Shown piece after piece: positions 34,089 to 34,181 of a stretch of 53,883 nucleotides of DNA. Origin of the DNA: Candidatus Levybacteria bacterium RIFCSPHIGHO2_01_FULL_37_33 (GTDB lineage Bacteria > Patescibacteriota > Microgenomatia > Levybacterales > UBA12049); assembly GCA_001782085.1 (NCBI GenBank), contig MFNM01000014.1, forward strand, positions 1-53,883, in the 5' to 3' direction. The translations under genes and the position numbers were made by a program. The notes under the pieces were generated by a model that saw only the letters and a program-made list of their open reading frames with translations, was not told where the DNA came from and ran no database searches. Positions within the stretch are counted from its first letter, which is position 1. Every line of letters begins with the position of its first letter.

Positions 34089-34181
34089 CAAAAACTTTCC
34101 TAGATTAAAAGATGTGCGGTGGATGTCAGAGAGGCCATAAGTCTTTAGAGCGGTTTGGTGAAATTTTGTTCCGTATCCTTT
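34089..34181 (-). pseudogene. relic of an RNase HII 3' end (31 codons, no 5' part)
   Basis: Minus-strand frame reads [31 protein letters not shown]. The intact rnhB C-terminus reads [31 protein letters not shown] (24 of 31 identical). Stop codons lie immediately upstream. Confidence 0.8.

Follow-up and report, generated by a model that had tools for sequence, protein, structure and literature searches.

In Escherichia coli K-12, the insertion of prophage e14 at icd supplies the gene with a diverged, largely synonymous 3' end, and the original end is left on the far side of the insert as a pseudogene fragment, icdC. The same arrangement is produced by phage 21. Integration of both elements depends on an integrase and takes place at a fixed att site.

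Displaced C-terminal (3'-end) coding sequences have likewise been described at the effector-immunity loci of rhs, CDI, and T6SS systems (Jackson et al. 2009, PMC2935791; Kirchberger et al. 2017, PMC5361080). A further precedent is homology-facilitated illegitimate recombination during natural transformation, in which homology pairs one end of the incoming DNA with the chromosome and the opposite end is joined without it (de Vries & Wackernagel 2002, PMC122324; Prudhomme et al. 2002, PMC122325; mechanism reviewed in PMC3240628).

Here, we analyzed a window of 53,883 nt, the whole stretch of DNA presented above, together with the 850-kb genome to which it belongs. The host is a groundwater Candidatus Levybacteria species, an assignment taken from the names on cluster members. 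In this window, a gene for a GT4-family glycosyltransferase lies between an intact rnhB and a second rnhB 3' end. We consider it highly probable that this second end is an untranslated piece of another rnhB allele, whose 3' terminus was stranded here, and that it marks the joint of two diverged Levybacteria haplotypes.

Layout of the rnhB-glgA locus

The features to which we refer below are the following.

36151 (or 36181)-35483, minus strand: intact rnhB, encoding RNase HII (PF01351; NF000595, 192 bits against a cutoff of 167)
35578-35486, minus strand: last 31 codons of the intact rnhB, the copy duplicated by the relic
35482-35385, minus strand: IG1, the 98-nt spacer between rnhB and the GT4 gene
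35384-34233, minus strand: gene for a GT4-family glycosyltransferase of 383 aa (no equivalog match)
34232-34182, minus strand: AT-rich spacer of 51 nt, 3' of the GT4 gene, with two in-frame TAA codons
34181-34083, minus strand: relic, the last 33 codons of a different, Z-type rnhB allele, with no start codon
34082-34055, minus strand: IG2, the shortened glgA leader
34054-32612, minus strand: glgA, encoding a glycogen synthase of the ADP-glucose type (TIGR02095, 439 bits against a cutoff of 328)

The start of the intact rnhB can be placed at MKKPSF, giving a product of 222 aa, which is also the length in the gene calls of public contigs, or at an upstream ATG at 36181, giving 232 aa. Its C terminus reads ...NLGKFL*, without an SP extension. 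The gene contains a GC-rich palindrome at approximately 35984-36023 (AAGGATACTCCTTGTCAGCC...AAGGAGTATCCTT), which lies in frame and is translated as KDTPCQPRTRSIL. This palindrome is also present in the Z-type allele described below and in the same-genus relative G001, and it is absent from the G002-type allele.

A preliminary description of this DNA had reported, downstream of the GT4 gene, a 31-codon frame with 24 of 31 residues identical to the C terminus of the intact rnhB product and with stop codons immediately 5' of it. We confirmed the presence of a second rnhB 3' end, which is identical to 35578-35486 at 65 of 93 nt; the protein similarity also stood, although the figure had to be corrected to 25 of 31 residues. 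The two ends lie 1397 nt apart and align in register, without gaps or indels. When the 850-kb genome was searched with RNase HII, the relic was the sole other strong match (E = 1.6e-10). In-frame TAA codons are indeed found just upstream, at 34187-34185, 34214-34212, and 34235-34233, the last being the stop codon of the GT4 gene, and the relic is untranslated. Its homology to other rnhB alleles extends two codons further (..KFLSP), to 34083, making the relic 33 codons or 99 nt long. Past this point, the frame stays open by chance up to a TAA at 34064-34062. The synonymous bias noted in the preliminary description is real, with 16.5 synonymous and 11.5 nonsynonymous differences between the relic and the intact end (pS 0.77, pN 0.16, pN/pS 0.21).

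A consensus scan identified a promoter-like TTGAAA-17-TATTAT with a TG extension in IG1 (35426-35398), and this site upstream of the GT4 gene is stronger than the one upstream of glgA. By eye, IG1 resembles the conserved rnhB-glgA leader of relatives. We rejected the idea that it is a copy of that leader after local alignment against 1000 shuffles (p ~0.5); the two are not homologous. That leader (~60 nt, ..TATATCTTCTTCCTCCAAGTAAAATAATGTGCTAAACTAAGCTAATTCCATT ATG) is present in contigs L095, L115-L120, L157, and L171, where it is much more conserved than the adjoining coding DNA, and it holds an extended -10-like TGTGCTAAACT. IG2 retains an extended -10-like TGATAAAAT, and approximately 45 nt of the distal part of the relatives' leader are missing. 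A -35-like TTGAGT is located in the last codons of the relic (34091-34086), and a -10-like TAAAAT lies in IG2, 10 nt before the ATG of glgA. No terminator was predicted between the GT4 gene and glgA. When compared with RNA families, the spacer and the relic gave no match, and they showed no unusual fold (z-score -0.43).

The rnhB-GT4-relic-glgA arrangement is genuine, and the species is fixed for it. It occurs on no fewer than 24 independent contigs, which come from nine or more samples and different assemblers, so the layout is no assembly artefact. Six of these contigs were compared base by base with the window, and there was not a single difference over the ~4.8 kb from the SBP gene to IG2.

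A second allele class, GT4-less relatives, and a variable interval

To find the allele to which the relic corresponds, we fused the relic peptide to the resident RNase HII, queried 5.8 billion proteins with this chimera, and scored the relic part alone. The last 33 residues of P0121, an RNase HII of 235 aa, are 100% identical to the relic. This protein is encoded on L095, a 970-nt contig from a different groundwater metagenome (SRR22388118) that carries the holin gene, rnhB, the leader, and the start of glgA, with no GT4 gene. At the nucleotide level, the relic and the L095 rnhB end are identical at 88 of 99 positions, and the 11-12 differences are all synonymous. The resident rnhB is ~72% identical to the L095 rnhB and 70% identical to the relic. 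From these comparisons, the relic is a nearly pristine piece of another rnhB allele class, which we refer to as Z-type. The L095 allele belongs to this same class and is not the donor itself, since about half of the synonymous sites differ (pS 0.5). We looked for a longer contig of the Z lineage and found none; the next relative is 77% identical and has a different end.

Because every difference between the relic and L095 is synonymous, the relic can have taken no more than about two neutral substitutions. In simulations, the probability that random hits in the relic are all synonymous was 0.23 for k=1, 0.05 for k=2, and 0.01 for k=3, which indicates that the relic has spent very little time as noncoding DNA. 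Its residues Lys-13 and Tyr-15 fit the family consensus (..ALKKYGLS..). The relic motif itself, ALKTYGL, is the type of other lineages; the resident rnhB end reads ALAKHGL, and the ends of G001 and G002, which belong to the same genus, read ALAKQGL. The preliminary description had proposed that each end evolved as coding sequence in a lineage of its own and that the pair does not represent a recent local duplication, and the match of the relic to an intact RNase HII elsewhere bears this out. We also considered gene conversion between the relic and the intact end and rejected it, as the two show no shared derived states beyond common polymorphisms.

A separate observation concerns the gene as a whole. 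The middle part of RNase HII, before ..LADGFH, occurs in at least three length variants in the genus, and 3' ends are shuffled among these variants. P0139, for example, combines a Z-like body with an ALAKHGL end, so that the rnhB gene is itself a recombination mosaic.

The comparison with relatives called for in the preliminary description revealed rnhB-glgA synteny without the GT4 gene in nine lineages (G001, G002, L116-L119, L125, L157, and L095). In G001 and G002, the holin gene and rnhB are followed by a leader of ~80 nt and then by glgA. Throughout the nine lineages, rnhB ends in ..KFL[SNI][PF]*, and a strongly conserved 60-nt leader follows. The relic occupies the place of the relatives' native rnhB end, directly before the glgA leader. 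The converse arrangement, rnhB-GT4 without the relic, was present in no sampled genome.

The order SBP-secG-CofD-holin-rnhB is syntenic family-wide, and a MacAB-like exporter is encoded downstream, with a variable interval between the two. This interval holds nothing much in G019, a HAD hydrolase gene overlapping the rnhB stop codon in G096, and glgA with two tRNA genes in G001 and G002. In the genome studied here, it contains the GT4 gene, glgA, a PIN/HTH pair, an inositol monophosphatase gene, GIY-YIG genes, and tRNA genes. The interval from rnhB to the MacAB-like exporter appears to be a hot spot where genes come and go. The genes at 29289-32611 that are extra relative to G001 and G002 are a PIN_3/HTH_17 pair, an inositol monophosphatase gene, two GIY-YIG genes, and a 135-aa orphan. 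They surround tRNA-Lys and tRNA-Arg, and lineage-specific insertions thus lie on both sides of glgA.

Related scars recur at this position. On contig L120 (1477-4443; also on L182-L185), the order is rnhB (..YNLSKFL*), a HAD hydrolase gene, a 45-nt relic, the conserved leader, and glgA. This layout was found on L120 and at least 20 further contigs, in which rnhB encodes 245 aa and the HAD gene overlaps its stop codon (ATGA). Genus g86 (G096) has a native rnhB-HAD-MacA order without glgA. On L115, a relic of ~57 nt and the leader stand behind an unrelated ORF, and on L171 the leader alone stands behind a HindIII-like restriction gene. In another genus, G167 carries a 41-codon relic of yet another allele ~830 nt behind an intact rnhB. 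The breakpoints differ among the cases, falling 99, ~57, 45, and 0 nt before the stop codon, which argues against a site-specific process.

In G167, the insert between the intact rnhB and the relic contains a 155-aa ORF on the other strand, and the 41-codon rnhB end continues the frame of 72 N-terminal codons of unrelated sequence, forming a 113-aa ORF (L188, G167:C27, 1753-2094, minus strand). Second RNase HII matches in G147 and G061 were also considered as relics and rejected, because they are broken rnhB genes. The G147 copy (L190, G147:C48) has an internal deletion of ~50 codons and a stop codon, and the G061 copy (L191, G061:C9) is split into two frames; they could be true pseudogenes or assembly errors.

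Origin and polarity of the rearrangement

The preliminary description held that the GT4 gene arrived on a segment that recombined within the rnhB 3' end and brought a replacement end with it. The notion of ends from different lineages stood; the arrival of the GT4 gene with the replacement end would be one of two possible polarities. The nearest homologues of the GT4 protein outside its own 90% cluster, which consists of this species alone, are 47-49% identical and lie in unrelated contexts, none of them beside rnhB, and we found no donor with rnhB next to this GT4 gene; the best match within the family is 35%. The preliminary description also called for a comparison of composition: among 375 long ORFs, the GT4 gene falls at the 83rd percentile for GC, the 63rd for GC3, and the 41st for codon-usage distance. 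We rejected a compositionally foreign GT4 gene, since all three values are ordinary for the genome, and this makes composition uninformative about a recent arrival. Finally, the intact rnhB 3' end shows no breakpoint when compared with its nearest allele (76 of 93 nt identical versus 79% overall).

We propose that two haplotypes were joined. Haplotype 1 would have carried the holin gene, rnhB (...KFL*), and the GT4 gene with its own promoter, and haplotype 2 would have carried an rnhB end (...KFLSP*), the glgA leader, and glgA. The imported DNA would have recombined homologously at one end and illegitimately at the other, as in the homology-facilitated illegitimate type. Homology stops at 34181/34182, and because there is none across the joint (microhomology of 1-2 nt at most), we infer illegitimate joining there; the right edge of the 51-nt spacer would be the illegitimate joint. 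The genome contains a gene for the ComEC uptake channel. Neither parental haplotype was found among the sampled sequences, which include no rnhB-GT4 without the relic and no Z-type rnhB in a background like that of this genome.

Recombination at the locus is apparent from other data. The dS matrices for CofD, holin, rnhB, and glgA conflict with one another, and glgA has dS values of 0.28-0.35 versus 0.43-1.8 in its neighbors. We did not accept the low glgA dS as proof that the relic arrived with glgA, as tracts are swapped inside glgA within the species and the relic is as far from G001 and G002 as the background is. Nine public contigs were fetched, and in the six compared base by base, all differences from the window lie inside glgA, from nt 405 onward (32612-33650). 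The foreign tracts span glgA nt 405-1438, 681-1365, 957-1233, and 555-1011 and are up to 14% divergent, reflecting either frequent foreign import or mixing of co-occurring species by the assembler. The variants L110 and L112 also have different genes after glgA. Two independent assemblies (L180 and L181) match the window at 100% identity over the block 36122-34106, which comprises rnhB, the GT4 gene, the spacer, and 76 nt from the start of the relic. The holin and upstream flank of these contigs is only 77% identical to that of the window and ~93% identical to that of L120, and both contigs end at 34106, inside the relic, so that a crossover may have taken place there. Conserved genes are prone to chimerism in metagenome assemblies, and the evidence from the glgA tracts and from L180 and L181 is weaker on that account; the relic itself is unaffected.

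Two polarities of the event, each with a putative single step, fit the data. In one version of the two-haplotype reading, a foreign fragment with an rnhB end and glgA was joined behind a resident rnhB-GT4, with the anchor on the right-hand side. We rate this version at just under an even chance, and it fits the data equally well as, or slightly better than, the polarity of the preliminary description. In its favor, the genome-wide kin G001 and G002 have the resident type of rnhB end, and the ..KFLSP*-leader-glgA linkage is constant. In addition, rnhB-HAD is native in another genus, which makes the HAD haplotype of L120 look old and the glgA module look added. An argument from ALAK[HQ]GL as a marker of a clade of this genome with G001 and G002 was weakened by the occurrence of the motif in the distant L179.

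The opposite version, that of the preliminary description, is that an imported rnhB-GT4 displaced the last 33 codons of a resident Z-type rnhB, with the homologous joint in or upstream of rnhB and the illegitimate joint at resident codon Lys-202. We regard it as plausible, with the balance tilted somewhat against it. Displaced 3' ends at rhs and T6SS loci are generally accounted for in this way (PMC5361080), and the family-wide synteny of the left flank from SBP to rnhB would have offered a long anchor. The L180/L181 contigs, in which the crossover lies at about codon 10 of rnhB, would represent transfer of the rnhB-GT4 block to another background, and the relic sits exactly where relatives have their native rnhB end. 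Against this, no rnhB-GT4 donor is known, and a search for relatives placed this genome in one genus grouping with G001 and G002, whose ALAKQGL resembles the resident ALAKHGL, so that the resident copy looks native, although L179 shares the motif. Moreover, the holin gene and rnhB of this genome are only 72-74% identical to those of the Z contig.

Explanations other than the joining of two haplotypes have to account for the same anatomy. Two in-register copies flanking a single gene, without indels, might recall a local duplication of 93 nt upon insertion of the GT4 gene, through a long target duplication or slippage, followed by decay of the downstream copy. However, the relic is nearer to L095 (88 of 99 nt, 100% at the protein level) than to the resident copy (65 of 93 nt), the pN/pS of 0.21 between the copies is not neutral, and the agreement of Lys-13 and Tyr-15 with the family consensus is unexpected from random decay. 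We therefore consider local duplication extremely improbable. Insertion of a transposon or IS element was likewise rejected: the repeats are 93 nt long and only 70% identical, and neither a transposase nor terminal inverted repeats were found. Scarcely more credible is the integration of a small element with its own rnhB end, through an integrase or through a single homologous crossover of a circle (Campbell type). The anatomy of an intact gene with a substitute end, cargo, and an old end recalls icd/icdC, and the duplicated unit is sharply bordered, but the 1.3-kb insert carries no gene other than that for GT4, and neither an integrase or transposase gene nor terminal inverted repeats were detected. 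Between the copies, identity never extends beyond 11 nt at a stretch. A RecA crossover or a typical att core would need more, which led us to reject Campbell-type integration through the 93 nt. The variation of breakpoints among cases, the missing RNA family match, and the unremarkable fold also speak against a dedicated site.

Two further proposals could be added to the joining of two haplotypes. The relic itself is probably without function, except perhaps for supplying the -35-like box for glgA. One proposal is that its end has been co-opted into the promoter or leader of glgA and kept for that purpose. Relic codons 31-32 and IG2 together contain a promoter-like TTGAGT-16-TAAAAT, the loss of the distal 45 nt of the leader gives the two boxes this spacing, and the T of the -35-like box corresponds to a CTG>TTG change in the relic. 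We nevertheless find such co-option unlikely: the match is to a consensus alone (9 of 12 positions), all strains are identical at the site, so its conservation is not measurable, and, in the absence of a predicted terminator behind the GT4 gene, glgA may instead be read through from the strong GT4 promoter, which could suffice. The other proposal is that in Levybacteria, and perhaps across CPR bacteria, conserved housekeeping genes such as rnhB offer their final ~100 nt as regular docking anchors. Single-gene cassettes without a recombinase would use them to move between lineages by transformation, with stranded ends anchoring the next swap. The block 36122-34106, which ends inside the relic in two assemblies with a foreign left flank, hints at this, but we hold the generalization to be doubtful.

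Comparison with described systems

The rnhB relic is a fairly ordinary scar of a known kind and reveals no new mechanism. It is a start-less 3'-end fragment from a different coding allele, there are relatives without the GT4 gene, and the pattern recurs with other cargo and other breakpoints, all of which are marks of a displacement scar. Its value lies in the matching of an orphan end to a living allele, in the dating of the scar, and in the recurrence at rnhB. The locus thereby offers a clean case, which can be dated, of accessory genes being acquired and reshuffled in ultra-small genomes that lack mobile-element machinery, through recombination at the ends of conserved genes. At this apparent hot spot, Levybacteria exchange glycogen synthase, GT4 transferase, HAD hydrolase, and HindIII-like restriction genes.

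As in icd/icdC, the rnhB gene is intact, with an end that may be a substitute, and the other end is stranded beyond the insert. Unlike at e14, there is no integrase in or beside the insert, which is a single gene, the breakpoints are variable, and there is no identical att-like core.

The resemblance to rhs, CDI, and T6SS loci is that the conserved part is kept and is followed by a 3' end, here a possible substitute, and new cargo, with the other end lying downstream as a start-less orphan. In both settings, the proposed cause is a homologous joint on one side and an illegitimate joint on the other, and the pattern recurs at the locus with different cargo. In contrast to those loci, rnhB encodes a housekeeping nuclease and no polymorphic toxin, the alternative ends have the same function, and there is no immunity gene. 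There is also no obvious selection to keep an rnhB orphan, a single relic is present in place of an array, and the rearrangement at rnhB may have had either polarity.

With homology-facilitated illegitimate recombination, the locus shares a presumed one-sided anchor, an insert that carries no recombinase, and a sharp joint with a few nucleotides of microhomology at most. The difference is one of evidence: the mechanism is experimental in Acinetobacter, Streptococcus, and Pseudomonas, whereas in this uncultured CPR bacterium its operation is deduced from the anatomy of the locus.
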